In this document: positions 403 through 40,400 of the stretch, piece after piece
Layout: every line of letters begins with the position of its first letter
Position numbering within the stretch: position 1 is the first letter of the stretch
Assembly (NCBI GenBank): GCA_019237315.1
Contig: JAFAHG010000192.1
Coordinates: 1 to 40,400 of the forward strand
Length of the DNA: 40,400 bases
Direction of reading: 5' to 3'
Source: Actinomycetota bacterium
GTDB taxonomy: Bacteria; Actinomycetota; Thermoleophilia; Gaiellales; Gaiellaceae
Translations under genes and position numbers: made by a program
Notes under the pieces: generated by a model
What the model was told of the DNA's origin: nothing
The model's database searches: none
What the model saw: the letters and a program-made list of their open reading frames with translations, nothing else

Positions 403-804
403 GTGGGGGATACCGGCCCGATCCGCGTCCTCGTCTGCGATGACTCGCCGACGTTCGCGGCAGGCTTGCGCCGCCTCCTCGAGCACGAGCCCGAGATCGA
501 GGTCGTCGGCGTCCGCGGCTCGGCCGAGGAGGCGATCGCCGCGGTTCCCGAGCTCGCTCCCGACCTCGTGACGATGGACGTGGAGCTACCCGGGATGAAC
601 GGGCTCGACGCCGTCCAGCGGATCATGCGGGAGCACCCGGTGCCGATCCTCGTCCTCTCCTCGCGGACGACGGTGGCCGAGGCGGCGCTTGCCGCCGGCG
701 CGGTCGCCGCGCTCGCGAAGGACGAGGTCGCGCTGCGAGAGCCGGACGGAGACGCCGCGACGGCCCTCCGGCGCCGGCTCCGCACCCTCGCCGGCCGGGC
801 CTGA
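403..804 (+). CDS. stand-alone response-regulator receiver domain, CheB-N-terminal-like, with no methylesterase domain
   Basis: In frame with track ORF 238..804. [81 protein letters not shown] matches the CheB receiver pattern (DD pair, phospho-Asp in TMDVELP). The protein ends about 50 aa later. Start is GTG 403 (alternative TTG 391); the upstream ORF portion is Arg/Ser-rich junk. Confidence 0.75.
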
Positions 805-841
805 CGGCAGGAGAGGCGTAGGCTCCCGCGAAGGATTCGCA

Positions 842-2290
842 ATGCTCGGCCACGATCCCGGCCTTCGCCGGGGCGTTCACGCCCGCGGCCCCGCACGCAG
901 GATTCTGATCGCCACGGCGGTCGTCGTCCCGCTCATCGCCATCGCCTTCGGCGTCTCCATCTGGCGTGACTACAACGCGGCCGCCAAGCGCGACCAGTCG
1001 ACTCGCTCCGCCAACCAGCAGCTGACCGCACAGGTCGCCGTCAACGCCTTCCTGCGCGAGCGCGAGGCGATGGACGAGTACATGCTCACCGCGAACATCG
1101 CGTCGCTGACGACGATCGGCAACTCGAGCGTCGAGTTCAACACGGCGATGCAGTCGCTCAAGCCGTCCGCGCCCGGCGAGGCCGCACTCATCCAGCGCGC
1201 CCAGGCCGCGAACGACGCGTTCGTCGCCGACTTCCGGCGTCACGAGGGAGCCGCCCGCACGAACGTCGTCGCCGAGGAGTCGGCGATCGCCGAGCTGAAC
1301 ACGCACGAGCCGAGCGTCGTCGGCTCCCTCGCGTCGCTCCAGCAGATCTACGGAGACGAGGCGACGAACCGTAGCTCTGCCGCCGCGAGCGCGCGAACCG
1401 AGTCGAGGATCGCGAGCCTCGTTGCCGCGATCGTCTCCATCGTGGCCGCGATCGGCTTCGCCGTCTACGCGCTCACGCTCGTCGCGCGGGTCGGCTCGCG
1501 CGAAGCAAGCCTCGCGGAGCTCGTGCACCGGGTGCACGACACGTCGGGGATTCTCGCGCTCGTCGCCAACGAGCTGCGCGCGGCCGTCAAGCAGTCCGCA
1601 ACCGCGACGACGCAGCAGTCGACGGCGGTCGCCGAGACGTCCGCGACGATCGAGCGGCTCGCGGCCGCCGCGACAGCGATCGCGGACAACGCGCACGCAG
1701 TTTCGGCAGCGGCCGAGCAGACCGGTGCGACGATGCGGCACATGCAGGAGCAGGTCGAGACGATCGCAGCGCGGTCGGCCTCGCTCGGCGAGCGCTCGCA
1801 GAGGATCGGCGAGATCCTGGCGCTGATCAACGAGCTCGCCGAGCAGACGAACCTCCTTGCGCTGAACGCCGCGATCGAGGCGGCGCGCGCCGGAGAGGCG
1901 GGCAAGGGGTTCGCGGTCGTCGCCTCCGAGGTGCGCAAGCTCGCCGAGCGCTCGATCCGCTCGACAGACTCGATCCGCGACATCATCGCCGACGTCCAGC
2001 AGGAGACGAGCGCGACGATCACCGCGACCGAGGCGGGCTCGCGGCAGGCACGCGAGGTCGGACAGCTGATGACCGAGACGACGAGGATGCTCGAGGAGTC
2101 GATCCGCGCCACGCAGCAGCAGAAGGCGGCCGCCGACCAGGTCGCCGCCGCGATGGTGCAGATCCGCGAGTCGGCGCTCGCGCTCGTCGCCGAGGCCGAG
2201 CAGCGCGCGAACACCGCCGCGCGGGTCGAGGAGCTCGCCGCCGAGCTCGAGCGGACGCTCGCCGGCGGCAACGGAGCGGGGCCGCGTTGA
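842..2290 (+). CDS. methyl-accepting chemotaxis protein (two TM helices, about 155-aa extracytoplasmic helical sensor, short signalling domain)
   Basis: Internal ATG 842 of ORF 689..2290 is preceded by GAAGGA. TM helices are [21 protein letters not shown] and [26 protein letters not shown]. The highly conserved hairpin tip [44 protein letters not shown] is present. Confidence 0.9.
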
Positions 2291-2631
2291 GCACCGTGGT
2301 GAGCATCCGCGTGGGCGGCGAGCGCTACGCAGTCCCCGTGGAGAACGTCCGTGAGATCGCCGACTTCGGTCTCGTCGCGGCGTTGCCCGGTGCCGGACCG
2401 GCGGTGCTCGGCGTCCGCAACCTGCGCGGGCAGGTGCTCCCGGTGTTCGACCTCGCGGCGGTGCTGGGCGTCGAGCGGGCGGACGGTCCGCTGCGGATCC
2501 TCGTCGCCGAGGACGGCGGCCGGCGCGCGGGGCTCGCGGTCGACGACGTGACGGATGTCGGTGAGGAGTCCGACGGCGCCACGCGTCTCGCGGCGGCGGA
2601 TCTCTTCGCTGCGCTGGCGCGGACGGCATGA
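2287..2631 (+). CDS. cheW: CheW-like coupling protein
   Basis: 114 aa. [11 protein letters not shown]...[21 protein letters not shown]...LAVDDVTDV matches the CheW fold pattern. The TTG start overlaps the MCP stop (TTGA). Confidence 0.85.
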
Positions 2632-4073
2632 CCGACGCCGAGTTCTTCGAGCTCTTCCGCGACGAGGCGAACGGCCGCCTCGACAACATGGTCGGCTCGC
2701 TGCTCGCGCTCGAGTCGGGCCGCGCGGCGCCGGACGCGGTCGACGCGCTCTTCCGCGACGCCCACTCGATCAAGGGCGGGGCGAGCATGCTCGGCCTCGA
2801 CGACCTGCACGCGCTCGCACACGCGATCGAGGACATCCTGGAAGGCGTGCGCGAGGAGCGCGAGCTGCCGGTCGACCTGACCGACACGCTGCTTCGGGCG
2901 GTCGACGCGATGCGCCGCCAGCTCGCGGGCGAGGAGCAGGGCGCGCCCGAGCTCCTCGACGAGCTCGCACGCCGCAGGGCCGGAATCGACGCGCCGGCTG
3001 CCGCCCCGGAGCCCATCCGGCGCACGATTCGCGTGGCGGCCGAGAAGATCGACCTGCTGCTCGACCTCGTCGGCGAGTCGATCCTGCACCGCCGCCGCCT
3101 CGAGCACGTGCTGGGCGACGAGCGCGTTCGCGAGGACCCGGACGTCGTCGACGAGCTCGACCGCGGCGAGCGGCTGCTCGACGAGCTGAAGGACGCCGCG
3201 ATCTCGATGCGCACGCTTCCGCTCGCGTCGATCACCGGCCCGTTCCCTCGCGCGGTGCGCGACATCGCGCGTGCCCAGGGGAAGGAGGCCGAGCTCAGCA
3301 TCGTCGGCGCAGACACCGAGCTCGACCGCGTCATCCTCGAGAGCCTGTCCGAGCCGCTCGCGCATCTCCTGCGCAACGCCGTCGCCCACGGCATCGAGCC
3401 GTCGGCGCAGCGGATGCGCGCCGGAAAGCACCCGACGGGTCTCGTCGAGCTGCGTGCGCTCCAGCGCGGCAGCGTCGTCGAGATCGTGGTCGCGGACGAC
3501 GGCCGCGGCGTCCCGCCCGAGACGCTCGCGCGTGCGGAGCGCGAGGGGTCGTTGACGGAGGTGCTGACGGCGCCGGGGTTCTCGACCGCGACGACGGTGA
3601 CCGAGCTCTCCGGCCGGGGCGTCGGCCTCGACGTCGTCAAGCGCCACGTCGAGTCGTTCACCGGCTCGCTGGAGGTGCGCAGCGAGGTGGGGAAGGGCAC
3701 GAGCATCGTCATGCTGCTGCCGCTTGCGCTCGCGCTGCTCGAGGTGCTGCTCGTCGAGCGCGGCCGGAACGTGTTCGGGATTCCGCTCGGCAACGTCGAG
3801 CAGGCGCTCGCCGTCCACGGGGTGCTACCCGCGCTGCCGCTCGCGGAGCTCGGCGACACGCCGCCGTCGCCGTCGCGTGCGGTGGTGGTTGCCGCCGCGG
3901 GGCGGAAGGCCGGATTCCTCTGCGACCGTCTGCTCGGCCAGGACGAGGTCGTCGTCAAGCCGCTCGGCCCGCTGCTCGCACGCGTCCGCGGCTACCTCGG
4001 CGCTGCGATCCTCGGCGACGGCCGCGTCGCGCTCCTTCTCGACCCCGCCGCGCTCGTCGCTCGTGCAGTCTGA
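2628..4073 (+). CDS. cheA: chemotaxis-type histidine kinase CheA (P1-P3-P4-P5, no recognisable P2)
   Basis: Hpt site is FRDAHSIKGGASMLG. Dimerisation region is RVAAEKIDLLLDLVGE. N box is HLLRNAVAHGIE, G1 is DDGRGV and G2 is GRGVGLDVV. A C-terminal CheW-like domain is present. ATGA overlap with cheW. Confidence 0.9.
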   Translation: MTDAEFFELFRDEANGRLDNMVGSLLALESGRAAPDAVDALFRDAHSIKGGASMLGLDDLHALAHAIEDILEGVREERELPVDLTDTLLRAVDAMRRQLAGEEQGAPELLDELARRRAGIDAPAAAPEPIRRTIRVAAEKIDLLLDLVGESILHRRRLEHVLGDERVREDPDVVDELDRGERLLDELKDAAISMRTLPLASITGPFPRAVRDIARAQGKEAELSIVGADTELDRVILESLSEPLAHLLRNAVAHGIEPSAQRMRAGKHPTGLVELRALQRGSVVEIVVADDGRGVPPETLARAEREGSLTEVLTAPGFSTATTVTELSGRGVGLDVVKRHVESFTGSLEVRSEVGKGTSIVMLLPLALALLEVLLVERGRNVFGIPLGNVEQALAVHGVLPALPLAELGDTPPSPSRAVVVAAAGRKAGFLCDRLLGQDEVVVKPLGPLLARVRGYLGAAILGDGRVALLLDPAALVARAV

Positions 4074-4077
4074 CGCC

Positions 4078-4767
4078 GTGGCAAGCGAACGGATCCTCGT
4101 CGTCGACGACAGCGACACCGAGCGCGCGATCGTGACCAGCCGGCTCGAGCAGCACGGCTACGCGGTCTCGACGGCCGACGACGGCACCGAGGGACTGCGG
4201 AAGCTCTACGGGCTGAAGCCCGACCTCGTCCTCCTCGACGTCGTCATGCCCGGGCTGACCGGCTGGCAGGTGCTCGAGCGGATCCGCGAGGTCTCCGACG
4301 TGCCCGTGATCATGCTCACGTCGCGCGACAGCGAGGTCGAGCGCGTCCGTGGGCTGCGCGGCGGCGCCGACGACTACGTGGCGAAGCCCTTCTCGTCCGC
4401 CGAGCTGCTCGCGCGCGTGGAAGCCGTGCTCCGCCGCACGAGCGCCGCGCCCGCTGTGCGCGACGTGTACGAGGACGCAGAGGTGTCCATCGACTTCGGG
4501 GCGAGCGAGGTGCGGGTCCGCGGCGAGCTCGTCCCGCTGACGCCGCTCGAGTTCCGCCTGCTCGGCACGCTCACCGCGCACCCGGGGCAGGTGCTCTCAC
4601 GCGAGCAGCTGCTCGAGCACGTCTGGGGCGACGCGTATGCCCGCGGCGGCGACGAGGTGAAGCTGTACGTCCGCTACCTGCGTCTGAAGGTGGAGCGCGA
4701 CCCGCAGAACCCGACGCTGATCGAGACCGTGCGCGGCTTCGGGTACCGCTACCGGCCGCCGCGTTAG
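4078..4767 (+). CDS. OmpR/PhoB-family response regulator (receiver + winged-helix DNA-binding domain)
   Basis: GTG 4078 lies 4 nt after the cheA stop. Receiver: ILVVDDSDTERAI...LVLLDVVMPGLTGW...ADDYVAKPF. Winged helix: LTPLEFRLLGTLTAHPGQVLSREQLLEHVWG...ETVRGFGYRY. Confidence 0.9.
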   Translation: MASERILVVDDSDTERAIVTSRLEQHGYAVSTADDGTEGLRKLYGLKPDLVLLDVVMPGLTGWQVLERIREVSDVPVIMLTSRDSEVERVRGLRGGADDYVAKPFSSAELLARVEAVLRRTSAAPAVRDVYEDAEVSIDFGASEVRVRGELVPLTPLEFRLLGTLTAHPGQVLSREQLLEHVWGDAYARGGDEVKLYVRYLRLKVERDPQNPTLIETVRGFGYRYRPPR

Positions 4768-4833: not shown

Positions 4834-5682
4834 CTAGGTCGCAGGATTGAGCACGAGCGCTGCGCCGCCGGTCTGCAGCGCCGTCAGCTGGTAGCTGAAG
4901 ATGCTCGAGAGCGTCAGCGAGTCGATCGTGTTCGCCTCGACGTCGTCCGGCTGCGTCGGGAGCGGCGGTGCGGCGAGCCGCAGCGTCGACTTCAGCGGAT
5001 GCGAGAGCTCGTCCTTGTAGTTCTTCTTCTGCAGGAAGAGGAGCGAGCTCGACGTCGATCCCGGCGCGGGCGGCATGAACGCGATCACCGAGTCGACCGA
5101 CGGGATGAACTTGAACGTGTAGAGCGCCACCTCGAGCGCCTCGCGGCGAACGAGCCGGCCGCGCTCGGACGACGGCGTGCCGCTCGCGATCGAGCAGTGG
5201 TCGCCGAGGCCGCAGAAGGTGTACATCTCGCTCTTGTTCGAGTTGAGGATCTCGTAGTTCGGCGTCTTGCGGATTGCGATCGCCTTGATCGAGATGTTCG
5301 TCGTCCCGCTCGTCACCGTCGGCTTGCTGGGGACGACCGCGACGAGCTGCGCGCCGCTCGAGTTCAGCTTGTACTCGTGCGACACGTGGTTCGCGATCTC
5401 GCTGGCCATCGTCGAGAGGCTGCCGACCGCCGGCTTCCAGGCCGACCATGGCGCCGGCGACCGGTGGCCCGGCTTCACGACGAGGATGACGAATGCACCG
5501 ACCGCCGCGAGCAGGATCCCGGCGAGGGCGCCGTAGACGATCGTGAACCGGGTGGTGTAGCGCGGCTGGTCGCCGAAGCCCATCTGCGGGACGAGCGGCA
5601 GCGGCCCCGTCGCAGGCTCGCCGATGGGGGCGGCGGAGTCGCCGGGCTCGCCGGCGGGGAACTCCGGAGGCGTCTCGCTCAT
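4834..5682 (-). CDS. hypothetical single-pass membrane protein with about 200-aa extracytoplasmic domain (no family recognised)
   Basis: This is the C-terminal in-frame part of track ORF 4834..8409, starting at ATG 5682 (MSETPPEF...). TM helix is FTIVYGALAGILLAAVGAFVILVV. Amino-acid composition is ordinary, unlike the Arg/Pro junk upstream in the same frame. ATGA overlap with the stop of the upstream FtsH-like gene. Confidence 0.7.
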   Translation of the reverse strand: MSETPPEFPAGEPGDSAAPIGEPATGPLPLVPQMGFGDQPRYTTRFTIVYGALAGILLAAVGAFVILVVKPGHRSPAPWSAWKPAVGSLSTMASEIANHVSHEYKLNSSGAQLVAVVPSKPTVTSGTTNISIKAIAIRKTPNYEILNSNKSEMYTFCGLGDHCSIASGTPSSERGRLVRREALEVALYTFKFIPSVDSVIAFMPPAPGSTSSSLLFLQKKNYKDELSHPLKSTLRLAAPPLPTQPDDVEANTIDSLTLSSIFSYQLTALQTGGAALVLNPAT

Positions 5683-8333
5683 GCCGGGCGTCCGCCGCGC
5701 GGGCCGTCGTCGTCGAGCTTCGACCAGTTCATGAGCCTCGGCCACGAGCTCTCGTCCGTCCAGTCGATCTGCGGCTTCGTGAAGTGCTGCCGGTCGAGCA
5801 GGTTGACGAGGTCGTCGCCGTAGATCTCCTTCTTCTCCATGACGGTGTCGGCGATGTTCTCGACCTGCCGCTTGTTCTGCTCGATCAGGTTGTAGGCCGT
5901 CACGAACGCCTGGCCGATGAACTGTGCGGCGTAGGCGCGCTTCCGCGGGTCGCTGAGGACGGAGCCGGTCGGGTCGCCGGTGGCCTGCGTCGCCGTGCGG
6001 TTGAGCAGGCGCATGCCGATGTCCTCGAAGCGCCGCTGCACGCGCTCGCGCGTCTGCTGCTCGCTCTCGTCGGCGAAGGTCTTGCCGTGCAGGTCGAGCG
6101 GGAGGGGGGACATGCCCGCCGCGCCGACCATCATCGCCGCCGTCCACGTGACCGACTGGAGGTCGCCGCCGACGCCGACCGAGTTCTCGCCGTAGAAGGC
6201 GAATTCCGCCGCCATCGCGCCGATCGTGTGCACGAGCGCGCCGAACATGCGGCTCTGGAACGCGCCGAAGCGCTCTTCCTTCTCGAAGGCCTGGTGGTGG
6301 CCGAGCGAGCCCGCGCGCATGCGGATCGAGAGGCGGCTCGACTCGAGGTCGGGACGGAAGACGTGCGCCGCAGCCGCGTGGCCCGCCTCGTGGATCGCGA
6401 CAGCGCGCGCATCCTCCTGCGTGTACTTGACGTTCACCGCGGCGCCGGACTCGATCACCGTCATCGCGTCGAGGAGGTGGCCCCATGTGAACGCGAGCTT
6501 CCCCTCGTGGTGGGCGTTCGTGAGCGCCATCGAGCAGATCTGGTCGATCATCGCCGGCGAGTACCCGTTCGTGATGCGCGCAATCTCGTCGCGGCGCTCC
6601 GGGCGGTCGAGCTCCGGGTCGTGCGCGACCTTGCCGAGGTACAGGTCGAAGATGTCCTTGCGGTCTTCCTTCGTCGGCGTGCGGAACGCGACGTGGCGGC
6701 CCATGCGGCCGGGGCGCAGGAGCGCCGGGTCGAGCTGCTCGAGCGGCACGTTCGTCGCGCCGATGAAGTAGATCTGCGCGCCGAGCGGCCGCGGCGCCGG
6801 CAGGCGGAGCGATGCAGTGCCGTTCCTCGTGACACCGCGCCAGACGCTGACGCCGACGAGGGCGAGCAGCAGGCCGGCCGCGGAGATGAAGATCGCGCCG
6901 AGCGTCGAGATGTGGAACGGCTGCGCGATGCCCTCGACGAAGAAGCACGCGCCGATCGCCATGACGGCGACGGCGAAGATCCGGCCCGACGTCTTGTTGA
7001 GGCGCCGCGGGACGACGAAGACCGCGTCGAGGAACGAGTTGATCCGGTTCGTGTACATGCGGCGGAAGAACGGCGGGTTGTCGATGCCGTCCATCGTCAC
7101 GAGCAGCTGGTTCAGCGCGAGCTGGCCGCCCATGCCGCCGAACATGCCGGGGAACGCGCCCTGATTCACGATCTCTGCGACGCGCGTCAGCCAGTGCGGG
7201 TACGGCGAGCGCGGCTCCGGCGCGCGCTGCGCGAACATGAACTCGCGCCACGCGGGGCTCTCGATGACGAGGTCGCCGCTCGGGTTGATCGCACCGAACG
7301 GCCCGAAGAACTCGGGCGTCCAGCCGTAGCTCGCGGTCATGCTCTGCGTGACGCCGCGGCGGCGCATGCCGACCGCGTCGATCTCGTCGATGAAGACGAT
7401 GCACTGGCCGCCCCACTTGCGCGCGAGCCGCTTCGCCTTGCGGGCGAGGTAGCGCACGACGATCGCGTCGATGCCGATGAACGTCGCGGCGAAGCCGGAG
7501 CCCGGGATCGAGACGAACGGCGAGTTGAACCCGGTGGCGATCGCCTTTGCGAGCATCGTCTTGCCGACGCCCGGCGCGCCGTGGAAGAGGAGACCTCGTT
7601 CGCGTTTGCCGCCCGCCTTCTCGAAGACTTCGCCCGACTGCCAGAGCGTGACGACGCGGCGCACCTCCTCCTTCGCCTCCGCCTGGCCGCGGACGTCGTC
7701 GAGGCGGACGCCCCACTCGGCGTCGCCGGGCTCGTAGCCGCGGATCTGCGAGATGTTCATGAGGAGCAGCGGCCCCATGAAGATGAAGAAGTTCGCGAAG
7801 AAGAGGAAGAACACGACCACGATCTGCATCCAGAACGCCTGGCTCTGTGCGAGCCGGCCGAGCGTGTGGAAGATGTGGCCGATCGTCCCGAAGTAGCTCA
7901 CGCTCTGGCCCGGCGAGGCCTTGGCAAGCTTGATCAGGAAGATGACGGTGAGGAGTCCGAAGATCCACGCGGCCTTGCGGACGACGCCGTTCCACGTCCA
8001 CGCGCGGCGGCGGTTCACGACGTCGTTCTCGCGGACGCGCGCGTCGTCGGTGCCGAAGAGCGACGGCCACGGGATCAGCCGGCGGACGATCACGTCGACG
8101 ACGCCGCGGAAGGCGACGATGGTGAAGAACGTGGCGACGAGCGACCAGAAGACGCCCCAGCCGTTGTGGTGGTGGTACCAGTAGAAGACCGACGGGCTCG
8201 TCAGGACCGCGATCAGGGTCGCGACGCGCGTGAGGCGGCGCCACTCCCGTGACAGCGCGCTCTGCGACTCGCTCACGAGCGACGGCTGTGGATTCGGGTT
8301 CGGCAGAGGTTCTGCGGCCGCCAAAGTTTTCAT
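5679..8333 (-). CDS. FtsH-like membrane AAA+ ATPase / M41 zinc metalloprotease with atypical insertions
   Basis: 884 aa with four N-terminal hydrophobic helices. Walker A is GAPGVGKT, pore loop is ATFIGID and Walker B is IVFIDEIDAV. Sensor and Arg finger: IYFIGATNVPLEQLDPALLRPGRMGR. M41 motif is HEAGHAAAAH, followed by EFAFYGENSVGVGGDLQSVT. Large insertions lie between Walker B and sensor-1. Confidence 0.85.
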   Translation of the reverse strand: MKTLAAAEPLPNPNPQPSLVSESQSALSREWRRLTRVATLIAVLTSPSVFYWYHHHNGWGVFWSLVATFFTIVAFRGVVDVIVRRLIPWPSLFGTDDARVRENDVVNRRRAWTWNGVVRKAAWIFGLLTVIFLIKLAKASPGQSVSYFGTIGHIFHTLGRLAQSQAFWMQIVVVFFLFFANFFIFMGPLLLMNISQIRGYEPGDAEWGVRLDDVRGQAEAKEEVRRVVTLWQSGEVFEKAGGKRERGLLFHGAPGVGKTMLAKAIATGFNSPFVSIPGSGFAATFIGIDAIVVRYLARKAKRLARKWGGQCIVFIDEIDAVGMRRRGVTQSMTASYGWTPEFFGPFGAINPSGDLVIESPAWREFMFAQRAPEPRSPYPHWLTRVAEIVNQGAFPGMFGGMGGQLALNQLLVTMDGIDNPPFFRRMYTNRINSFLDAVFVVPRRLNKTSGRIFAVAVMAIGACFFVEGIAQPFHISTLGAIFISAAGLLLALVGVSVWRGVTRNGTASLRLPAPRPLGAQIYFIGATNVPLEQLDPALLRPGRMGRHVAFRTPTKEDRKDIFDLYLGKVAHDPELDRPERRDEIARITNGYSPAMIDQICSMALTNAHHEGKLAFTWGHLLDAMTVIESGAAVNVKYTQEDARAVAIHEAGHAAAAHVFRPDLESSRLSIRMRAGSLGHHQAFEKEERFGAFQSRMFGALVHTIGAMAAEFAFYGENSVGVGGDLQSVTWTAAMMVGAAGMSPLPLDLHGKTFADESEQQTRERVQRRFEDIGMRLLNRTATQATGDPTGSVLSDPRKRAYAAQFIGQAFVTAYNLIEQNKRQVENIADTVMEKKEIYGDDLVNLLDRQHFTKPQIDWTDESSWPRLMNWSKLDDDGPRGGRPA

Positions 8334-8349: not shown

Positions 8350-9417
8350 GTGAGATCGCCAGACCGGTTTTTCTCCGCTGAGCAGGTCGAGCAATCGCGG
8401 CGCTACCACCGTCCGCTCTACGTCGCGCAGGCAATCGACCTCGTGCTCGGCCTGCTCGTGCTCGGCCTTCTGGCCGCGTTCGCCGACTGGCGGATCGGCC
8501 CGTGGTGGCTTGCAGCCCCGCTTCTCGCGGCGATCGCGGTTGCCGTGTCGGCATTCGTGCGCCTGCCCGTTGTTTTCTGGTCAGGCTACGTCAACGAGCA
8601 CCGGTGGGGCTTCTCGACGCAGTCGGTGGCCGCCTGGGCGGGCGATTTTTTCAGGAAACTTTTAGTCGCCTGCGTGTTCGCCGCGATCCCCGTGCTCGGG
8701 GTCGTCGGCCTCGCGCACGCGCTTCCGTCGTGGTGGCCGGTCGTCGCGGCGCCGCTCGCGGCGCTCTTCGTCCTCGTCGTCGGCTTCCTGGCGCCGGTCG
8801 TCCTCGAGCCGCTCTTCAACCGGTTCGAACCGCTCGCCGACGAGGAGCTCGCCGCCGAGCTTCGCGTGCTCGCGGTGCGCGCCGGGGTACCGGTGCGCGA
8901 CGTCCTCGTCGCAGACGCGAGCCGACGGACGACGAAGGTCAACGCGTACGTGTCGGGGCTCGGCTCGACGCGGCGTGTCGTCCTGTTCGACACGCTTCTC
9001 CGTCGCGCCGCGAGGCCGGAGCTCGAGCTCGTCCTCGCGCACGAGCTCGGTCACCGGCGGGCGCGCCACGTCGTGAAGGGAACCGTGCTCGGCATGCTGG
9101 GCGCGGTCGCGGGCACCTTCGTCGTCTGGGCCGTCCTCGACGATCCGCGGGATCCGACCGTCGCGCCGCTCGTCCTGTTCGTCGCGATGGTCCTCGAGCT
9201 CCTGACGCTGCCGTTCTGGACGTCGCTCTCGCGGCGCTTCGAGCGCGAGGCGGACCGGTTCTCGCTCGACCTCACCCACGACCGCGACGCGTTCGTGACC
9301 GTTCACCGCGAGCTCGCGACCGCGAACCTGAGCGACCTCGACCCGCCGCGGATCGTCTACCGGATCCTCTTCACGCACCCGACGGCGCCGGAGCGGATCG
9401 CGTCGGCGTTCGCGTGA
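8350..9417 (+). CDS. M48-family (Ste24/HtpX-type) integral-membrane zinc metalloprotease
   Basis: Multiple N-terminal TM helices. NRFEPLADEELAAELRVLAVRAGVPVRDVLVADASRRTTKVNAYVSGLGSTRRVVLFDTLL is followed by HELGH and the downstream FEREADRF glutamate ligand. Start is GTG. Confidence 0.85.
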   Translation: MRSPDRFFSAEQVEQSRRYHRPLYVAQAIDLVLGLLVLGLLAAFADWRIGPWWLAAPLLAAIAVAVSAFVRLPVVFWSGYVNEHRWGFSTQSVAAWAGDFFRKLLVACVFAAIPVLGVVGLAHALPSWWPVVAAPLAALFVLVVGFLAPVVLEPLFNRFEPLADEELAAELRVLAVRAGVPVRDVLVADASRRTTKVNAYVSGLGSTRRVVLFDTLLRRAARPELELVLAHELGHRRARHVVKGTVLGMLGAVAGTFVVWAVLDDPRDPTVAPLVLFVAMVLELLTLPFWTSLSRRFEREADRFSLDLTHDRDAFVTVHRELATANLSDLDPPRIVYRILFTHPTAPERIASAFA

Positions 9418-11324
9418 CCGAGCTCGACCGGCTCGTCGAGCGGTCGCGCCGCATCGGCGCGGACCCCTCGCTCGTGCTGCACGGCGGCGGGAACACCTCG
9501 ACGAAGCTCGTGGAGACCGACCACCTCGGCCGCGAGCGCCGCGTGATCCGGATCAAGGGCTCCGGGTCGGATCTCGCCACGTGCGAGGCGCGGCACTTCC
9601 CCGGGCTCTGGCTGGACGAGCTCCTGCCGCTGCGGGAGCGGGAGAGCCTCTCGGACGAGGAGATGCTTGCGTATCTCGCACGCTGCCTCGTCGACCCGAC
9701 CTCGCCGCGGCCTTCGGTCGAGACGCTCCTGCACGCGTTCCTGCCGGCGGCGCACGTCGACCACGTCCACGCCGACGCGATCTGTGCGCTCGCGAACGCC
9801 CCGGATCCGGAGGCGGCGGTGCGCGACGCGCTCGGGGACGACGTCGCGGTCGTCCCGTACATCCGCCCGGGGTTCGAGCTGTCGAAGCGGGTCGCTGCGC
9901 TGGCCGAGCGGCGGGCGGTCGTCCTCGCCCACCACGGGCTCGTGACGTGGGGGGAGGAGCACGAGGAGTCGTACGGGCTCCTCTCCGATCTGGTCTCGCG
10001 CGCGCGCGACTACTTAAAGGGCCGAGGGGCCGACGTGGCGGTGCCCTGGCCACCGCCCGCCGGGTCCGGCGCCGACCGGCTCGCGCTCGCGCGGCTCCGC
10101 GGCCGGCTCTCGCGCGGGCGCCGCCAGGTGCTCGCCATCGACCCGGCCCAGCGCGACCTCGCAGCGCGGCCGGACCTCGAGGCGGTTGCCGCGGAGCGTG
10201 GGACGCCGGACCACATGCTGCGGATCGGGATCCGCACCTCGCTCGGCGACGTGGACGACTTCGAGCGCGGGTACGCGGAGTACTTCGAGCGGAATGCGGG
10301 GCGCGAGGCGATGCTCGACCCGGCACCGCGTGTCTTCCTGCTCCCGGGCGTCGGGTGCGTGGCCGCGGGGCCCGACGCCGCAACCGCCCGGCAGCGCCTG
10401 GAGATCGCGGCGCACTCGCACCGGACCGTCGCCGCGACGCGCGACGCCTTCGGCGGCTCGAGCTGGCTGAGCGAGCGCGAGGTCTTCGCGTTCGACTACT
10501 GGCCGCTCGAGCTGTACAAGCTGACGCTGCTGCCGGAGCCGCCGGAGCTCGCCGGTTCGGTCTTCGCCGTCACCGGCGCGACCTCCGGGATCGGGAAGGC
10601 GGTGGCGCGGGAGCTCTCCGCGCGCGGCGCGCATCTCGTGCTCGCGGACCGCGACGGGGAGGGGCTCGGCGACGGGCTGCCGGAGGTGCGGACGCACACC
10701 GTCGTCGGCGACCTGACCGATCCGGCCACCGTCGAGGCCGTCGTCGGCGGCGCCGTCGACCGCTTCGGCGGCCTCGACGGTGCCGTGCTGAACGCGGGCA
10801 TCGCCTCGACCGGCATGCTGGACGAGCTCGACGCGGCCGAGTGGCAACGCAGCCTCGACGTCAACCTCACAGCGCACTTCGAGCTGACGCAGGCGCTCTG
10901 GCCGCTGCTCCGTGAGCAGGGAATCGGCGGCAGCCTCGTCTACGTCGCGTCGAAGAACGCGTTCGCGCCCGGCGGCGGCTTCGGGCCGTACTCCGTCGCG
11001 AAGGCGGGACTGCTTCAGCTGATGCGCATCGCCGCGATCGAGGGCGGGCCGATCGGCGTCCGTGCGAACGCGGTCAACCCCGACGCGATCTTCGGCGACT
11101 CGCGGCTCTTCTCGTCCGAGGTGCGCGCACAGCGCGCGGCGGCGCACGGAGTCGCGCCCGACGAGCTCGAGGCCTTCTACGCGAAGCGGAGCCTGCTCGG
11201 GCGCGAGGTCACGGCGGCCGACGTCGCGGCGTCGGTCGCGTTCCTGCTCTCCGACCGCGCACGTGCGACGACGGGCTGTGTCGTCACCGTCGACGGCGGC
11301 GTCGCGGCGGCGTTCCCTAGGTGA
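9414..11324 (+). CDS. bifunctional class II aldolase / short-chain dehydrogenase (rhamnulose-1-phosphate aldolase/alcohol dehydrogenase-like)
   Basis: GTG 9414 overlaps the M48 stop (GTGA). The N-terminal half (LHGGGNTSTK...HVDHVHADAI...VLAHHGLVTWG) is aldolase-like. The C-terminal half is SDR-like: VTGATSGIGKAVA (TGxxxGxG) and YSVAKAG (YxxxK). Confidence 0.8.
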   Translation: MTELDRLVERSRRIGADPSLVLHGGGNTSTKLVETDHLGRERRVIRIKGSGSDLATCEARHFPGLWLDELLPLRERESLSDEEMLAYLARCLVDPTSPRPSVETLLHAFLPAAHVDHVHADAICALANAPDPEAAVRDALGDDVAVVPYIRPGFELSKRVAALAERRAVVLAHHGLVTWGEEHEESYGLLSDLVSRARDYLKGRGADVAVPWPPPAGSGADRLALARLRGRLSRGRRQVLAIDPAQRDLAARPDLEAVAAERGTPDHMLRIGIRTSLGDVDDFERGYAEYFERNAGREAMLDPAPRVFLLPGVGCVAAGPDAATARQRLEIAAHSHRTVAATRDAFGGSSWLSEREVFAFDYWPLELYKLTLLPEPPELAGSVFAVTGATSGIGKAVARELSARGAHLVLADRDGEGLGDGLPEVRTHTVVGDLTDPATVEAVVGGAVDRFGGLDGAVLNAGIASTGMLDELDAAEWQRSLDVNLTAHFELTQALWPLLREQGIGGSLVYVASKNAFAPGGGFGPYSVAKAGLLQLMRIAAIEGGPIGVRANAVNPDAIFGDSRLFSSEVRAQRAAAHGVAPDELEAFYAKRSLLGREVTAADVAASVAFLLSDRARATTGCVVTVDGGVAAAFPR

Positions 11325-12819
11325 GTCCGGCCTCGCGCAGCGGGCGGCGCGCCCACGCGAAGCTGCGCGAGTACCACCCGTCGAACGGCACGATGGTCAC
11401 GCCCTCGTCGGAGGAGTGGATCATCCAGCCGTCGCCGAGATAGAGGCCCATGTGGTCGACGACGTTCGGCGACGAGCTCGGGCCGCGGCCGAAGAAGAGC
11501 GTGTCGGCGGGCTGCAGCTTCGACGCCGGCACGCGGTCGTAGCGCGGCACTTCGCCGCTCATCACGTACGTCGTCCGTCCGCGGAGCACGCCGGCGAGAT
11601 CGCCCTCGTTCGCGTACCGGGTGAGCTTGTACACGCGCCAGACGAACCCGGAGCAGTCGAAGCCGCCGGGTGCGGTCGAGCCGAACTCCGTCTCCGTGGT
11701 CGGGCTCGTGCCTCCCCAGACGTACGGGTAGCCGACGTACGAGACGGCCGTGCGGAGGATGCGCTGTTGCCACGGCGTGAGCGACGGAAGCGCGAACGAG
11801 TCGGCGAGCTGCTGCACCCACTGCGTGTCCGAGTCCCCGAGGTCGAGGACGCGCGCGAACGAGTACGCAGCCTCCGCACGCGTCGCACTCTGGAACGGAA
11901 GCAGCTCGAGGTCGTCCTCACCTGCCGGATGGTTGACACGCAGGCCGAGCAGCCGCGCGACGATCTCGGTTCCCGTCGCGGAACGCGGATCGAGTCCTGC
12001 GGCGGCGAGCCTCTGCTGGAACTCGTGCGCGGCGCCGCCGAGGTCGAGGTAGTCGACGAGCGCGGTGTCGAGCTCCTCGATCGTGACCGCGCGCTCCGGC
12101 GTGCGCGCGGAGTAGAGATAGCGCGGCGGAGTCGTCCGCGCCGGAGGTGTCGGCGTTGCGACGACGACCGGTGCGGGCGGGGGCGGTGCCGGCGGCTCGT
12201 GCGTGATCGGCACGGGAACGGGTGTCGTGGGCAGCGGCGTCGTCGCGGCCCCAGGGGCGTTCGCGGTCGTGACGTTCCAGACTGCGATGTATTGCGCGCC
12301 GTCGCTGCGCGTTGCCGCCACTGCGAGCTGATGCGTCCCGTCCGCGAGCGTCTCGGTCGCGAGGGAGAAGAAACCGTTCGGTGAGACCGCGAGCTGCGTG
12401 CCGTCGACCGCGAAGGCGACGTGGTCGATCGGCTGGCCGGGAACGGTGATCTGCCAAGCGACCGTGCCGGCGATCGTGGCGTCCGGCGAGATCGTCGAGA
12501 GGACCTGCACGGGCGGCGGCGCGGGCGCCGCGACCGGTTCCGGCGCGGGCGCCGGCGGCGGCGGGGGAGGCGGCGCGAGCAGCTTGTCGGTCGCCGCGAT
12601 CGCAGCGGCGAGCGCCTGCTCGGTCAGCGGCGCCTGCGGCCGGAAGGTCGCGGCGGAATGTCCGAGGACACTGACGTGCGTCACCTTCGCGATCTCACGC
12701 GAGGCCCAGCCCGCGTCGTTCGCGGACGCAGCCGGCGCGGCGAGCGCGGCGATCAGCGCCGATGCCGCAATACTCTTCGGTAGATATGCGCAGAGGACCC
12801 GCACGTGTTCTCGACCCAC
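11317..12819 (-). CDS. secreted NlpC/P60-family peptidoglycan endopeptidase with SLH-like and Pro-rich linker regions
   Basis: Signal peptide is ...SIAASALIAALAAPAASA. Pro-rich linkers include PPPPPPPAPAPEP and PPAPPPPAP. The C-terminal catalytic domain has GGFDCSGFVWRVY (Cys) and HMGLYLGDGWMIHS (His). Start is GTG 12819 or GTG 12804. Confidence 0.8.
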   Translation of the reverse strand: MGREHVRVLCAYLPKSIAASALIAALAAPAASANDAGWASREIAKVTHVSVLGHSAATFRPQAPLTEQALAAAIAATDKLLAPPPPPPPAPAPEPVAAPAPPPVQVLSTISPDATIAGTVAWQITVPGQPIDHVAFAVDGTQLAVSPNGFFSLATETLADGTHQLAVAATRSDGAQYIAVWNVTTANAPGAATTPLPTTPVPVPITHEPPAPPPPAPVVVATPTPPARTTPPRYLYSARTPERAVTIEELDTALVDYLDLGGAAHEFQQRLAAAGLDPRSATGTEIVARLLGLRVNHPAGEDDLELLPFQSATRAEAAYSFARVLDLGDSDTQWVQQLADSFALPSLTPWQQRILRTAVSYVGYPYVWGGTSPTTETEFGSTAPGGFDCSGFVWRVYKLTRYANEGDLAGVLRGRTTYVMSGEVPRYDRVPASKLQPADTLFFGRGPSSSPNVVDHMGLYLGDGWMIHSSDEGVTIVPFDGWYSRSFAWARRPLREAGLT

Positions 12820-20136: not shown

Positions 20137-20528
20137 GAGCCACGCTCTACACCGACGGCGGCGCCCGCGGCAACCCCGGCCCGGCGGCGTTCGCGTACGT
20201 CCTCGAGGCGGCCGACGGCACCGTGCTCGCCTCGCACGGCGAGAAGATCGGCGTCGCGACGAACAACGTCGCGGAGTACCGCGGCCTCGTCGCGGGGCTC
20301 GAGCGGGCGGTCGAGCTCGGGGTGCCCGAGGTCGACGTCGTCTCCGACTCCGAGCTCCTCGTCAAGCAGATGCGCGGCGAGTACCGGGTCAAGAACGAGG
20401 CGCTGGTCGACCTCTCCCTACAGGCGTCGCGCCTCGCACGCAAGCTGACGCGCGTGACCTACCGGCACGTCCGCCGCGCGCACAACGAGCTGGCCGACCG
20501 GCTCGTGAATGAAGCTCTGGACGCATGA
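20133..20528 (+). CDS. rnhA: ribonuclease HI
   Basis: GTGA overlap with the upstream gene. The DEDD residues sit in LYTDGGARGNPGPAA, TNNVAEYRGL, VVSDSELLVKQM and RAHNELADRLVNEA. Confidence 0.85.
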   Translation: MRATLYTDGGARGNPGPAAFAYVLEAADGTVLASHGEKIGVATNNVAEYRGLVAGLERAVELGVPEVDVVSDSELLVKQMRGEYRVKNEALVDLSLQASRLARKLTRVTYRHVRRAHNELADRLVNEALDA

Positions 20529-22465
20529 TCGTCGTCCTGCCGCTGCTCACGATCGCGGTCGCCGCGTTCGCGGCAACGAGCCTGCGCTTCGACTTCGTCG
20601 CCACGCTCGTCGCGGGGTACGTCGCGCTCGTGGCGAACGTCGGCGTCGTCACGTGGGTGCTGTCGCCCTTCGACGCGGTCACGCGCCTCGGACTGCTCGT
20701 CGCGGAACTCGTTCTGCTCGTCGCCGCGACCGCGGTGTGGCACGCGCGTGGGCGACCCCGTCCGCGCCTGCCGTCGCTGCGCCCGTTCGGCGACCCGCTG
20801 ACGCTCGTCTTCCTCGCGGGGCTCGCCGTGATCCTCGGCTACGAGCTGATGCTCGCGCTCGAAGTGCCGCCGAACAACTGGGACTCGCTCGCCTACCACC
20901 TCACGCGGGCGGCCGAGTGGAAGCAGCGTCACGGTATCCACTGGATCCCGAACGCTCCGAGCGGCCGCGACAACGAGTTCCAGCCGCTCGCCGAGCAGCA
21001 GATCCTCTACCTCTTCGTCGCGGCGGGCAGCGGCGCGCTCTTCGCGCTGCCGCAGTTCGTCGCGGAGCTCGCGATCCTCGTCGCGGTCTACGGTGCGTCG
21101 CGCCGCCTCGGCTTCGAGCGTGCGGCGGCAGCGCGCGGCGTCGCGGTGCTCGCGACCTTCAGCGCCGTCGCGCTGCAGTCGACGACCGCACAGAACGACC
21201 TCGTCGCAGCCGCGTTTCCGGCGTGCGCCGCATGTCTCCTCCTCGGCGGGGAGGGGATCGTCGCCGGCATCGCGCTCGGGATGGCCGTGGGCGCGAAGCT
21301 GACGACGGTCCTCGCATGGCCGGTGCTCGCCGCGCTCGCGCTTCTCGCCGGCCGTCGCGTGGCGACGCGTGCCGCGATCGGAACAACCGTCGGCTTCGTC
21401 GCGGTCGGGTTGTGGAGCTTCGTGCTCAACCTGATGCACACGGGTCACGTGCTCGGCCACGGGCAGGGGCGCGTAGAGGAATCCGTGTCGCCGTCGCTCG
21501 TCACCGACGTGCACACGTTCCTGCGGATCGTGTACCGGTTCCTCGACGTCGGTCTCCTGTCCGATCCGCAGATCTGGGGCCTCGCGGCGGCGGGCGCGGT
21601 CGTCGCCGTCGCCATGCTCGCTCGTCGCCGCTTCCCCGACCCGGCGGTGCCGCTCGAAACGCCGCTCGCGATTCTCGGCATCGCACCTGCACTCGCCTGG
21701 ATCGCGACGGAGATCCACCTCCCCGTGCACGATCCGATCTACGGCTTCGACATCAACCGCGGCGCGAACGAAGACTTCTCGGCGCTCGGTGCGATCGGCG
21801 CGCTCGGGGTGTTCGGCGCACCGTTCCTGGCACGGGACCGGGACCGCCGAGCGCGCGTCCTCGCCCTTTCGTTCCCGACCTATCTGCTGTTGCTCGGCCT
21901 GTACGCGAAGTACAACATCTGGCTGACGCGGTTCATGCTCGTGCCGGTCGTCCTCGCAGCGCCGCTGAACGCGCTGCTCGTGCGGCGCCGCCTCGTCGCA
22001 CTCGCGGTGCTCGCCGTCGCGGGGTGGACGGGCTTCTATGCGCTCGAGTACGACGCGTCGAAGCCGCTCTTCGGCGGCGCGGTCGGCAGACCGTGGCAGC
22101 TCGACCAGGCGGGCGCGCTCGCGGAGAGTCCTGCGGAGCCGACGGGACGCATCGCCGCCGCCGGGCTGCGCGCGTACGACCGCGCGGTTCCCGCGAATGC
22201 GTGCGTCGGCGCGGTCCTCGACCCCGACGAGTGGGCGTACCTCCTGTGGGGGCAGCATCTCTCGCGTCGCGTCGTCTTCCTGCCGTCGCTGAAGGCGCTC
22301 GCGACGGCGTACGCCGACAACCTCCGCTACGTCGTCGTCTCGACGGGGATCAACAAGCCTGTGGCCAAGCAGTTCACGCCGCCGAACTGGACGGTGCGGC
22401 CCCTCGGCGCGTACTGGCAGCTCGCCGTCGCGCGCCACGTGCGGCCCGGCGGGTGCTCGGAATAG
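20525..22465 (+). CDS. large polytopic membrane protein, possibly a GT-C-type glycosyltransferase
   Basis: 646 aa with at least 12 hydrophobic segments. There is an early extracytoplasmic loop (PPNNWDSLAYHLTRAAEW) and a C-terminal soluble region. ATGA overlap with rnhA. The family assignment is tentative. Confidence 0.5.
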   Translation: MIVVLPLLTIAVAAFAATSLRFDFVATLVAGYVALVANVGVVTWVLSPFDAVTRLGLLVAELVLLVAATAVWHARGRPRPRLPSLRPFGDPLTLVFLAGLAVILGYELMLALEVPPNNWDSLAYHLTRAAEWKQRHGIHWIPNAPSGRDNEFQPLAEQQILYLFVAAGSGALFALPQFVAELAILVAVYGASRRLGFERAAAARGVAVLATFSAVALQSTTAQNDLVAAAFPACAACLLLGGEGIVAGIALGMAVGAKLTTVLAWPVLAALALLAGRRVATRAAIGTTVGFVAVGLWSFVLNLMHTGHVLGHGQGRVEESVSPSLVTDVHTFLRIVYRFLDVGLLSDPQIWGLAAAGAVVAVAMLARRRFPDPAVPLETPLAILGIAPALAWIATEIHLPVHDPIYGFDINRGANEDFSALGAIGALGVFGAPFLARDRDRRARVLALSFPTYLLLLGLYAKYNIWLTRFMLVPVVLAAPLNALLVRRRLVALAVLAVAGWTGFYALEYDASKPLFGGAVGRPWQLDQAGALAESPAEPTGRIAAAGLRAYDRAVPANACVGAVLDPDEWAYLLWGQHLSRRVVFLPSLKALATAYADNLRYVVVSTGINKPVAKQFTPPNWTVRPLGAYWQLAVARHVRPGGCSE

Positions 22466-37069: not shown

Positions 37070-37076
37070 GAGGGGG

Positions 37077-37082
37077 ACCTTA
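37077..37082 (-). promoter_or_regulatory. -10-like hexamer TAAGGT (minus strand), 7 nt upstream of ATG 37069
   Basis: TANNNT-N7-ATG. Confidence 0.35.
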
Positions 37083-37149
37083 CGCAGGTGAGCAGGGAAA
37101 ATCCACCGTCCGGGATCCGTCCGACGACGACCGTACCCTCGATCGTCCG

Positions 37150-39269: not shown

Positions 39270-39275
39270 TAGAAT
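39270..39275 (+). promoter_or_regulatory. -10-like hexamer TAGAAT, 6 nt upstream of ATG 39282
   Basis: Near-consensus -10 in the AT-rich patch tagaatttgtcc, directly abutting the start codon. Confidence 0.45.
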
Positions 39276-39281
39276 TTGTCC

Positions 39282-40400
39282 ATGGCGGTCCTGGAACGGC
39301 ACAACGACCTGGTCGACGAGCTCATCGCCGAGGTCGAGGCGTACAAGCCCGATGCCGACCGGGAGCTCCTGACCCGCGCCTTCGAGTTCGCCGCGCGCGC
39401 CCATGAAGGGCAGCGCCGCCGCTCCGGCCAGGAGTTCATCCACCACCCGTGGGGCGCGGCGAAGATCCTCGCCGGCCTGCGCATGGACGAGGAGGCGCTC
39501 GCCGCCGCGCTCCTCCACGACACCGTCGAGGACACCGGCGTCGGCATCGAGGACATCCGCAACGAGTTCGGCAAGGACATCGCGGAGCTCGTCGAGGGCG
39601 TCACGAAGCTGACGCGCGTGCAGTTCCAGAGCCGCGAGCACGCGGAGGCGGAGAACTACCGCAAGCTCGTCGTCGCGATGGCGGGCGACGTCCGCGTGAT
39701 CCTGATCAAGCTCGCGGACCGCCTGCACAACATGCGCACGATCGAGTACATGGGCAAGCAGACCCAGGTTCGGAAGGCGAAGGAGACGCTCGAGGTGTAC
39801 GCGCCGCTCGCGCATCGCCTCGGCATCCATGCGCTCAAGTGGGAGCTCGAGGACCTCGCGTTCCAGACGCTGCACCCGCGCAAGTACGAGGAGATCAAGC
39901 AGATGGTCTCGGAGCGGCGCGCCGACCGCGAGGAGCACGTGCGCGAGGCGGCGCTCGTCCTGCAGCGCGAGCTCGACAAGGTCGACGTGCCCGCGGAGAT
40001 CTCCGGGCGCGCGAAGCACTTCTATTCCATCTACGACAAGATGGCGAAGAAGGGTCGCGAGTTCAACGAGATCTACGACCTGACGGCGATGCGCGTGATC
40101 GTCGAGCGCGACAGTGACGAGGGGACGCGCGACTGCTACGGCGCGCTCGGTCTCATCCATTCGTTGTGGAAGCCGATGCCGGGCCGGTTCAAGGACTACA
40201 TCGCGATGCCCAAGTTCAACGGCTACCGCGCACTGCACACGACCGTCATCGGGCCGCAGGGGCGGCCGCTCGAGATCCAGGTGCGGACGCGCGAGATGCA
40301 CGCGACCGCCGAATACGGTATCGCCGCGCACTGGCTCTACAAGCGGGGGCGGAAGGTCGCCGACGCGGAATGGGCGCAGTGGGTCGAGCAGCTCATGGAC
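39282..40400 (+). CDS. relA: bifunctional (p)ppGpp synthetase/hydrolase RelA/SpoT homologue (5' part; continues past window end)
   Basis: Hand translation gives MAVLERHNDLVDELIAEV... HD domain: HPWGAAKIL...LLHDTVEDT...IKLADRLHNMRT. Synthetase domain: GRAKHFYSIYDKM, DLTAMRVIV, YRALHTTV, EIQVRTREMH. Not in the track because it is open-ended. Confidence 0.9.
   Translation, partial: MAVLERHNDLVDELIAEVEAYKPDADRELLTRAFEFAARAHEGQRRRSGQEFIHHPWGAAKILAGLRMDEEALAAALLHDTVEDTGVGIEDIRNEFGKDIAELVEGVTKLTRVQFQSREHAEAENYRKLVVAMAGDVRVILIKLADRLHNMRTIEYMGKQTQVRKAKETLEVYAPLAHRLGIHALKWELEDLAFQTLHPRKYEEIKQMVSERRADREEHVREAALVLQRELDKVDVPAEISGRAKHFYSIYDKMAKKGREFNEIYDLTAMRVIVERDSDEGTRDCYGALGLIHSLWKPMPGRFKDYIAMPKFNGYRALHTTVIGPQGRPLEIQVRTREMHATAEYGIAAHWLYKRGRKVADAEWAQWVEQLMD

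Follow-up and report, generated by a model that had tools for sequence, protein, structure and literature searches.

A divergent FtsH-type protease clade centred on Thermoleophilia with two insertions in the AAA+ module and an optional, predicted membrane hairpin

FtsH is the universal membrane-anchored AAA+ protease, and there is continuing debate over how its substrates cross the space that separates the bilayer from the ring to reach the ATPase pore. The present work concerns an FtsH-like AAA+/M41 protease gene of 884 amino acids (aa) at 5679..8333, (-) strand, in a 40.4-kb stretch of DNA from a Gaiellaceae bacterium (positions 1 to 40,400 of contig JAFAHG010000192.1, assembly GCA_019237315.1; the whole stretch is called the window hereafter), delimited by the open reading frame (ORF) call, Pfam, TIGR01241, and homologues of 56-100% identity. 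In archaeal LonB, a membrane-anchoring segment that includes a transmembrane (TM) fragment is embedded inside the AAA+ module (PMC9569914). The review PMC9020784 describes an FtsH AAA ring whose entry face looks toward the membrane, and chloroplast FtsH relatives in which the protease site has been lost or relocated, the inter-TM region enlarged, and the functions specialised. In cryogenic electron microscopy structures of ClpXP, the RKH loop of ClpX forms a β-ribbon stem with a short helix that projects from the entry face, touches the substrate at and above the channel top, and tunes the ATPase rate.

By its family matches and motifs, the window protein is assigned to the FtsH-type AAA+/M41 zinc proteases and, with its catalytic motifs intact, is apparently active. 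Two insertions, both of them family-wide traits, interrupt its AAA+ module, and a hairpin of approximately 60 aa, grafted onto the Arg-rich tip of the second, is found in some members only.

Catalytic core and the two insertions of the AAA+ module

An earlier note, made by a model from the letters alone, had described an FtsH-type protease with an interrupted AAA+ module and a complete set of FtsH catalytic hallmarks, and both claims are borne out by the family matches, the split AAA match, and motifs that are invariant across 20 aligned homologues. In this 20-sequence alignment, the invariant positions comprise G252, P254, G255, G257, K258, and T259 of Walker A (GAPGVGKT, residues 252-259), the pore-1 loop F285-I286-G287, D316 and E317 of Walker B (IVFIDEID, residues 312-319), sensor-1 T527-N528, the arginines R540, R543, and R546, and the protease site H648-E649-x-x-H652 together with E710 and D724. 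The last two align with the acidic residues of the 'AAEE' and 'NDL' blocks of canonical FtsH, which supply the third zinc ligand. The motif set of the classical AAA+ clade (Walker A/B, pore-1 loop, sensor-1 Asn, and arginines of the second region of homology, SRH) is therefore all present, and, as in FtsH, a C-terminal Peptidase_M41 domain carries HExxH and a downstream acidic third ligand. The first half of the AAA+ module (7371..7718, (-)) holds Walker A, the pore-1 loop FIG, a 4-aa KWGG insert, and Walker B in the alignments, and the second half (6444..6776, (-); Pfam and alignments) holds the sensor-1 strand QIYFIGATN, the SRH with its three arginines, and the lid subdomain.

Matches to family models are split in the same place. 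Alignment to the hidden Markov models PF00004 and PF01434, a check put forward earlier, gave an AAA match at residues 248-326 that covers model positions 1-74 of 131 only and a Peptidase_M41 (PF01434) match at residues 638-743 (E=4.5e-17), with AAA_lid_3 at residues 582-620. The best NCBIfam match is the FtsH equivalog TIGR01241, which aligns as two pieces, the second being residues 521-841. Scores of the whole protein lie below the curated family cut-offs, at 226.8 bits against 600 for TIGR01241 and 133 against 1008 for PRK10733. The AAA chains of the PDB all align at residues ~209-330 and then from ~520 (to 628), which leaves approximately 190 residues between Walker B and sensor-1 compared with approximately 45 in canonical enzymes. 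A reading of the protein as part of a defence system was dropped, its PADLOC matches being to generic AAA (IetA) only.

The Peptidase M41 domain (residues 631-850; 5784..6443, (-), with HEAGH at 6378-6392), delimited by Pfam, TIGR01241, and alignments, holds an internal insert of approximately 15-20 aa and is followed by a short C-terminal tail (residues 851-884; 5679..5783, (-), stop codon included) with a conserved IDWTxExxWP motif in the alignment. Only approximately 35-43 residues lie past the domain, and the C-terminal extension of approximately 150 aa claimed earlier proved to be wrong, since TIGR01241 aligns through residue 841, M41 runs to residue ~850, and in two homologues the Pfam M41 match covers model positions 6-189 of 191, nearly reaching the C-terminus.

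Insertion boundaries were set by aligning the window protein and three family members with five canonical FtsH sequences from fetched loci. Insertion 1 (residues 322-398; 7140..7370, (-)) adds approximately 70 aa where the pore-2 loop lies, after Walker B and ahead of helix α3, the spacer from DEIDAVG to LNQLL being 84 aa long compared with approximately 17 in the five canonical proteins. Helix α3 (…LALNQLLVTMDG; 7086..7139, (-)), a canonical AAA element recognised in the alignment, separates it from insertion 2 (residues 417-519; 6777..7085, (-)), which lies between α3 and the sensor-1 strand. Here, the spacer from MDG to QIYFIGATN is approximately 103 aa against 7-8 or so in canonical FtsH, of which approximately 95 aa are inserted, and the uninterrupted AAA α/β subdomain of FtsH is thus absent. 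These lengths agree with the first estimates of ~75 residues in place of ~13 and ~105 in place of ~8. Insertion 2 is composed of a conserved helix and, around the hairpin, an Arg-rich stem (DNPPFxRR…VPRRL / SLRLPxPRPxGA), and the insertion region has no NCBIfam match. The KWGG insert before Walker B is an additional departure.

Among the best 120 homologues (56-100% identical, 791-920 aa long), all those with locatable motifs have insertion 1 and the insertion 2 framework, DNPPFxRRxxTNxxNSFLDAxYxVPRRLGR … SLRLPxPRPxGAQ. It is the family-wide insertions, and not the hairpin, that split the AAA module, and the hairpin is a later, dispensable graft. A relative from Dormiibacterota (locus L015) lacks insertion 1 and keeps the insertion 2 framework; it looks like an evolutionary intermediate. 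The framework of insertion 2 was probably gained first, insertion 1 next, and the hairpin last. The same gene (6040-8169 of L015, a metagenome-assembled genome, MAG) also keeps a KxWGG insert and has no partner gene of the kind described below, its downstream ORFs resembling a transglycosylase and an HtrA-type serine protease when their translations are judged by eye.

An origin of the interrupted module in a frameshift, a mis-assembly, or a chimera, or the decay of the gene into a pseudogene, has also been considered. The G+C content at third codon positions (GC3) is 0.95-1.00 in each segment of the ORF, both insertions and the hairpin included, which indicates that a single reading frame is used throughout; the protein databases hold one entry 100% identical to the 884-aa protein, and dozens of independent metagenomic homologues have the same layout. 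Taken together, these exclude a frameshift or mis-assembly, and the insertions, which the earlier note had set down for an artefact check, are genuine. One homologue, P0067, has a hairpin region that looks out-of-frame and would favour an artefact, whereas the unbroken ORF, the uniform codon bias, the shared layout, and the invariance of every catalytic residue speak against it, as does the placement of insertion 1 and the conserved part of insertion 2 among the better-conserved regions of the protein. An artefact or pseudogene origin is effectively refuted by these data and retains hardly any credibility. In P0067 itself, the hairpin region is a same-length Arg/Pro-rich stretch and is probably a compensated frameshift or a metagenomic assembly error.

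The positions of the two insertions can be read against ClpX. A fragment of Escherichia coli ClpX (residues 180-258, verified as exact against the PDB) has the order Walker B (IVYIDEID), pore-2 loop (V202), α3 (…LLKLIEG217), RKH loop (R228-K229-H230), and β4 (ILFICGGAF), by which insertion 1 lies at the pore-2-loop site and insertion 2 would lie at the RKH-loop site. For insertion 2, this equivalence is positional, drawn from shared flanking motifs, with no sequence similarity and no RKH motif. As the entry face of the FtsH ring looks toward the membrane, a hairpin reaching the bilayer from this site would be geometrically reasonable, and, judged by homology of position, the Arg-rich tip of hairpin-less members or the hairpin of the window gene may project toward the bilayer around the pore.

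Among 1.84 billion representative proteins, a search with residues 322-450 reached only 202 clusters at a threshold of E<=0.001, many of them fragments, and 127 clusters at E<=1e-10. At the 50% identity level the clade is narrow, though it is rich in close variants in soil metagenomes. A genome scan with generic FtsH peptides gave 80 loci, and at least 16 loci of species-representative genomes belong to the family, the other 64 being canonical FtsH of unrelated phyla; these counts are minima. The family loci come from Gaiellaceae/Gaiellales, Solirubrobacterales, unclassified Thermoleophilia, MAGs labelled Actinomycetes or Actinomycetota, and one Dormiibacterota, a taxonomy drawn from the 16 genome loci and a few NCBI names. 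The survey of the clade proposed at the outset thus recovered an insertion-bearing family that is narrow, with the hairpin in only part of it. Among the 10 large predicted ORFs of the window scanned with Pfam, none is a canonical ftsH, and literature searches on FtsH with Thermoleophilia, insertions, or additional transmembrane segments returned nothing on the protease family. Two homologues hold intein-like inserts: P0246 (1140 aa) has one of approximately 340 aa after ARITNGY that ends in …THN|SPAM, with a LAGLIDADG_3 match at 748-798, and P0256 (1090 aa) has one of approximately 310 aa after ATGFN, bounded by C… and …TGN|C.

Occurrence and membrane character of the hairpin

The predicted membrane helical hairpin (residues 447-507; 6813..6995, (-)), which is confined to a sub-branch, is placed by hydropathy, AlphaFold2 (AF2), and charges, with helix 1 (residues 449-470) at 6924-6989 and helix 2 (residues 477-499) at 6837-6905. 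It is carried, with a length of 59-84 aa, by approximately 54 of the 120 closest homologues; in the other 66 or so, the flanks are joined by a turn of 2-3 residues (VPRRLGRVSLRLP), and the tip is a tight Arg-rich turn, VPRRLGRxSLRLP. Among the 16 family loci listed from species-representative genomes, L009 alone has it. The graft point is identical in all carriers, while the sequence of the hairpin is strongly divergent between sub-branches and its two-helix hydrophobic pattern persists. In a neighbour-joining tree built without the hairpin columns (no support values, four tips mislabelled), a large basal group lacks the hairpin and a derived group mixes carriers and non-carriers, which suggests either one gain followed by several losses or repeated gains.

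Such a distribution could reflect a tolerated, neutral insert at an exposed loop tip, spanning or not, that serves no specific gating or regulatory role. This would account for homologues in which the same flanking residues simply meet in a short turn, for the repeated loss or gain implied by the interleaving of carriers and non-carriers, and for a hairpin that is far less conserved than the remaining protein. The two-helix length, the hydrophobicity, and the flanking charges are kept, however, in carriers down to 62-68% full-length identity, although the hairpin sequences of those carriers barely align, and this points to purifying selection on physical character; GC3 shows no relaxation either. 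Neutrality is for these reasons considered quite improbable.

The earlier note had reported two strongly hydrophobic stretches in the second insertion, and they were found at residues 452-470 and 478-497 with Kyte-Doolittle averages of 2.3. Their mean Eisenberg hydrophobicity (<H>) of 0.80 and hydrophobic moment (muH) of 0.06-0.08 are the same as in TM2-TM4 of the N-terminal anchor, unlike the soluble helices of this protein. Crude sums on the Hessa scale are +0.7 and -1.4 kcal/mol for the two helices, and the most hydrophobic soluble 19-mer scores +5 to +7. In 49 hairpin-bearing homologues, the median crude sums are 1.3 and 1.2; for the control, which is the 19-mer of highest hydrophobicity in the soluble AAA half, the median is 7.4 and no value falls below 5.0. 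The mean number of Lys and Arg residues in these 49 is 3.7 before the hairpin, 0.6 in the connecting loop, and 2.2 after it, which is the positive-inside pattern expected of an in-out-in insertion. AF2 was run on the full protease with a 20-sequence alignment, and secondary structure alone was used from the model; it gives long helices at 447-470 and 477-504 with a predicted local distance difference test (pLDDT) of ~65-87 per 10-residue block, the best-scored stretch of the AAA region. The membrane hairpin proposed at first is thus consistent with hydrophobicity, charges, and AF2 helices, but as an optional element of the family, and it is considered likely, with good confidence, that it truly spans the membrane.

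Helices that do not cross the membrane could instead enter only the inner leaflet, as a monotopic or re-entrant wedge, or, packed against one another or the N-terminal TM bundle, make up a hydrophobic collar above the pore. This is suggested by the acidic residue that most hairpins hold in a helix, by unfavourable crude insertion energies of some segments, by a connecting loop that comes down to 4-10 residues in the window sub-branch, and by AF2 helices without reliable tertiary placement. On the other side, the segments are 19-23 residues long and uniformly hydrophobic with a near-zero amphipathic moment, like TM2-TM4; Lys and Arg are concentrated on either outer flank and scarce in the loop; and the acidic residue of the window sub-branch sits near the loop-proximal end of helix 1 (VEG). 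A non-spanning arrangement is therefore regarded as unlikely. In the window sub-branch, the acidic residue is E466 in an FxVEG motif, near the C-terminal, loop-proximal end of helix 1. In other sub-branches, helix 2 has the acidic residue (D or E) midway along, often preceded by R at a distance of seven residues. TM2 of the N-terminal anchor bears an invariant R76 and a near-invariant D80, and intramembrane charge pairing is possible.

Membrane anchor, partner gene, and neighbourhood

The N-terminal membrane domain (residues 1-205; 7719..8333, (-)) is delimited by hydropathy, AF2 helices, and invariant columns. Four hydrophobic helices, as the earlier note had stated, are predicted concordantly by hydropathy, the crude Hessa-scale sum, and AF2 secondary structure at approximately 37-55, 59-83, 119-137, and 166-192 (TM1 8169-8225, TM2 8085-8159, TM3 7923-7979, and TM4 7758-7838, all (-)), instead of the two TM segments that flank an FtsH_ext domain in FtsH. 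TM1 (residues 37-55) is markedly weaker, with a crude sum of +3.9 compared with +0.1 to -2.1 for TM2-TM4. The protease has no Pfam match to FtsH_ext, and the N-terminal domain as a whole has no Pfam or NCBIfam match. The TM2-TM3 loop, RRxIPWPSLFG…NRRRxWTW (7980-8084), is predicted to be cytoplasmic and is near-invariant, the best-conserved part of the domain; Arg-rich stretches occur throughout it and before TM1, a pattern that fits an N-in, C-in anchor. The predicted extracytoplasmic loops are only approximately 3 and 28 residues long.

Downstream of the protease gene lies a co-conserved partner gene of 282 aa (4834..5682, (-)), recognised by its overlap with the protease stop codon, by synteny, and by AF2. 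Its ATG overlaps the stop codon (ATGA), and it directly follows the protease in 14-15 of the 16 family loci listed, other neighbours not being conserved; the co-conservation that the earlier note had marked for checking is thus found. The partner has a disordered Pro-rich N-tail, one TM helix (residues ~47-69), and a predicted extracytoplasmic α/β domain of approximately 210 aa with two invariant cysteines, C157 and C163, in a confident AF2 model (pLDDT 80.8). It has 695 homologues, with no informative name among the matches listed, and no Pfam, NCBIfam, or PADLOC match; a fold search against the PDB gave no match at E<=0.001, the best query-normalised TM-score being approximately 0.2.

The gene divergent from the protease (8350-9417, (+)) encodes an M48 (Ste24/HtpX-like) zinc peptidase with a five-helix N-domain, whose first in-frame start codon is approximately 16 bp from the protease start. 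It was rejected as a functional partner, as it adjoins the protease gene in one of the 16 loci only (L001). The protease ATG at 8333 has no obvious Shine-Dalgarno sequence before it, with a tiny gap to this neighbour, and the transcript may be leaderless or the start of the neighbour mis-set. The database twin of the protease (P0001) is 3 aa shorter and would match a start at TTG, codon 4.

Past the 3' end of the protease-partner operon, a chemotaxis-type signalling block (599-4767, (+)) comprises a methyl-accepting chemotaxis protein (MCP) signalling-domain protein (599-2290, (+)), a CheA-like kinase with Hpt, H-kinase_dim, HATPase_c, and CheW domains (2628-4073, (+)), and an OmpR-type response regulator (~4100-4767, (+)). 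Genes elsewhere in the window encode an NlpC/P60 peptidase whose long N-terminal region is Pro-rich (11317-12819, (-)), a GT87-family glycosyltransferase (20513-22465, (+)), RecJ (37072-39021, (+)), and a RelA/SpoT homologue cut off by the window end (39273-40400, (+)). The window is ordinary chromosomal context, not a mobile element.

Proposed mechanism and comparison with known systems

The protein is probably a catalytically competent, membrane-bound, ATP-dependent zinc protease of a divergent FtsH-superfamily clade centred on Thermoleophilia. Relative to canonical FtsH, the clade has exchanged the anchor of two helices and a periplasmic domain for a four-helix bundle with almost no extracytoplasmic mass, and enlarged the pore-2 loop by approximately 70 aa. 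An Arg-rich projection of approximately 35 aa extends from the α3/β4 junction, predicted to lie on the substrate-entry face, and in the sub-branch of the window gene a 60-aa helical hairpin has been grafted into the turn of this projection. The hairpin would most likely span the membrane in-out-in, giving six TM helices per protomer and 36 per presumed hexamer, and the hairpins would fasten the ATPase ring, by its entry face, to the bilayer that surrounds the pore. In that case, substrates would be drawn mainly from within or at the membrane, not from the cytosol, and the translationally coupled, single-pass partner could supply the missing extracytoplasmic domain as an adaptor, regulator, or sensor. 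Hexamer formation, membrane insertion, gating, tethering, and the roles of the partner are all inferred. It is tentatively proposed that the hairpin restricts or gates lateral substrate entry, or couples the ATPase to the membrane or the partner.

Several observations weigh against this proposal. The hairpin is missing from more than half of the close homologues and its carriers are interleaved on the neighbour-joining tree, so that it cannot be essential to the core mechanism of the family; being so often absent, it would modulate the machine rather than define it. An acidic residue lies within one helix in 43 of the 49 hairpins, and the crude Hessa sums are borderline in some homologues, up to +4.5 and +7.2. 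The AF2 monomer, a model the earlier note had suggested building, did return the two long hairpin helices but is poor over the full length (mean pLDDT 56.8, with the AAA core below 50). The proposed roles of insertion 1 and of the partner are putative.

A more elaborate possibility, which is doubtful, is that protease and partner form a novel kind of membrane-integrated dislocase-protease with a closed intramembrane vestibule. Six intradomain hairpins, each wired directly to a sensor-1 strand, and 24 N-terminal helices would enclose this vestibule over the ATPase pore, and substrates could enter it from the bilayer in a lateral direction only. The membrane state, or signals that reach the novel extracytoplasmic domain of the partner, would control ATP hydrolysis allosterically, and between the rings of ATPase and protease a further internal chamber would be formed by the 70-aa insertion at the pore-2 loop.

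Members of the family that have either the Arg-rich tip or a full hairpin at one point offer a natural comparison for what closing the gap between membrane and ring would do to the choice of substrates and the control of the ATPase. Two classic hot spots of AAA+ specificity, the pore-2 loop and the presumed counterpart of the RKH-loop site, accept domain-sized insertions here with the catalytic motifs kept. The partner, without a detectable relative in Pfam, NCBIfam, or the PDB, may represent a new class of FtsH adaptor. The clade is abundant in soil metagenomes, and the functional statements made about it are predictions.

Canonical bacterial FtsH (TIGR01241; MEROPS M41; PDB 2ce7, 4ww0, and 7vhp; Thermotoga, Aquifex, and E. 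coli) has the same order of anchor, classical-clade AAA+ module, and M41 domain, and shares with the window protease Walker A/B, the aromatic-hydrophobic-Gly pore-1 loop, the sensor-1 Asn, the SRH arginines, HExxH, and the third-ligand acids. Unlike canonical FtsH, the window protease has a four-TM anchor that lacks FtsH_ext, 4 extra aa ahead of Walker B, approximately 70 aa at the pore-2 loop, approximately 35 aa (95 or so with the hairpin) at the α3/β4 junction, and an obligate-looking downstream partner gene.

AFG3L2 (m-AAA, PDB 6nyy) is also of the FtsH family and is the best-scoring PDB chain over the second AAA half and M41 (query residues 521-742). Neither it nor chloroplast FtsH12, FtsHi, and Ycf2 have a detectable specific relationship to the window protease, and none of them is known to have TM helices inside the AAA module. 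The heavily remodelled pore-2 loop and entry face could indicate that the window protein is mainly an ATP-driven motor for membrane translocation or extraction, like the chloroplast Ycf2/FtsHi complex, with proteolysis secondary, and other FtsH relatives with large insertions have turned into import motors, according to PMC9020784. HExxH, E710, and D724 are nevertheless invariant, whereas the FtsHi proteins have lost HExxH, and a motor of this kind is held to be very unlikely, an active protease being preferred.

ClpX resembles the window protease in having an insertion at the α3-to-β4 junction, as judged by flanking motifs. It is, in contrast, a soluble unfoldase of the HCLR clade with a loop of approximately 25 aa that carries the RKH motif and is not hydrophobic, and the ClpX family models score 18.9-23.6 bits on the window protein against cut-offs of 359-371.

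Archaeal LonB, like the window protease, is an ATP-dependent membrane protease with a membrane segment inside its AAA+ module, so that the topology of the hairpin, which the earlier note did not know from characterised FtsH, Yme1, or Afg3 enzymes, does have a precedent, by analogy and not by homology. LonB belongs to a different AAA+ clade and has a Ser-Lys Lon protease domain, whereas the window protein has Peptidase_M41 as its only protease domain and scores 19 against 608 bits on the Lon (S16) model TIGR00763. The LonB insertion, its sole anchor, falls between Walker A and Walker B; the window protease has no insertion of this kind there, and its hairpin comes after Walker B and α3 and before sensor-1, in addition to the N-terminal four-helix anchor. 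These differences in clade, position, and protease domain indicate that the window case is convergent and that membrane helices inside the AAA+ module, if the hairpin is one, arose independently of LonB.

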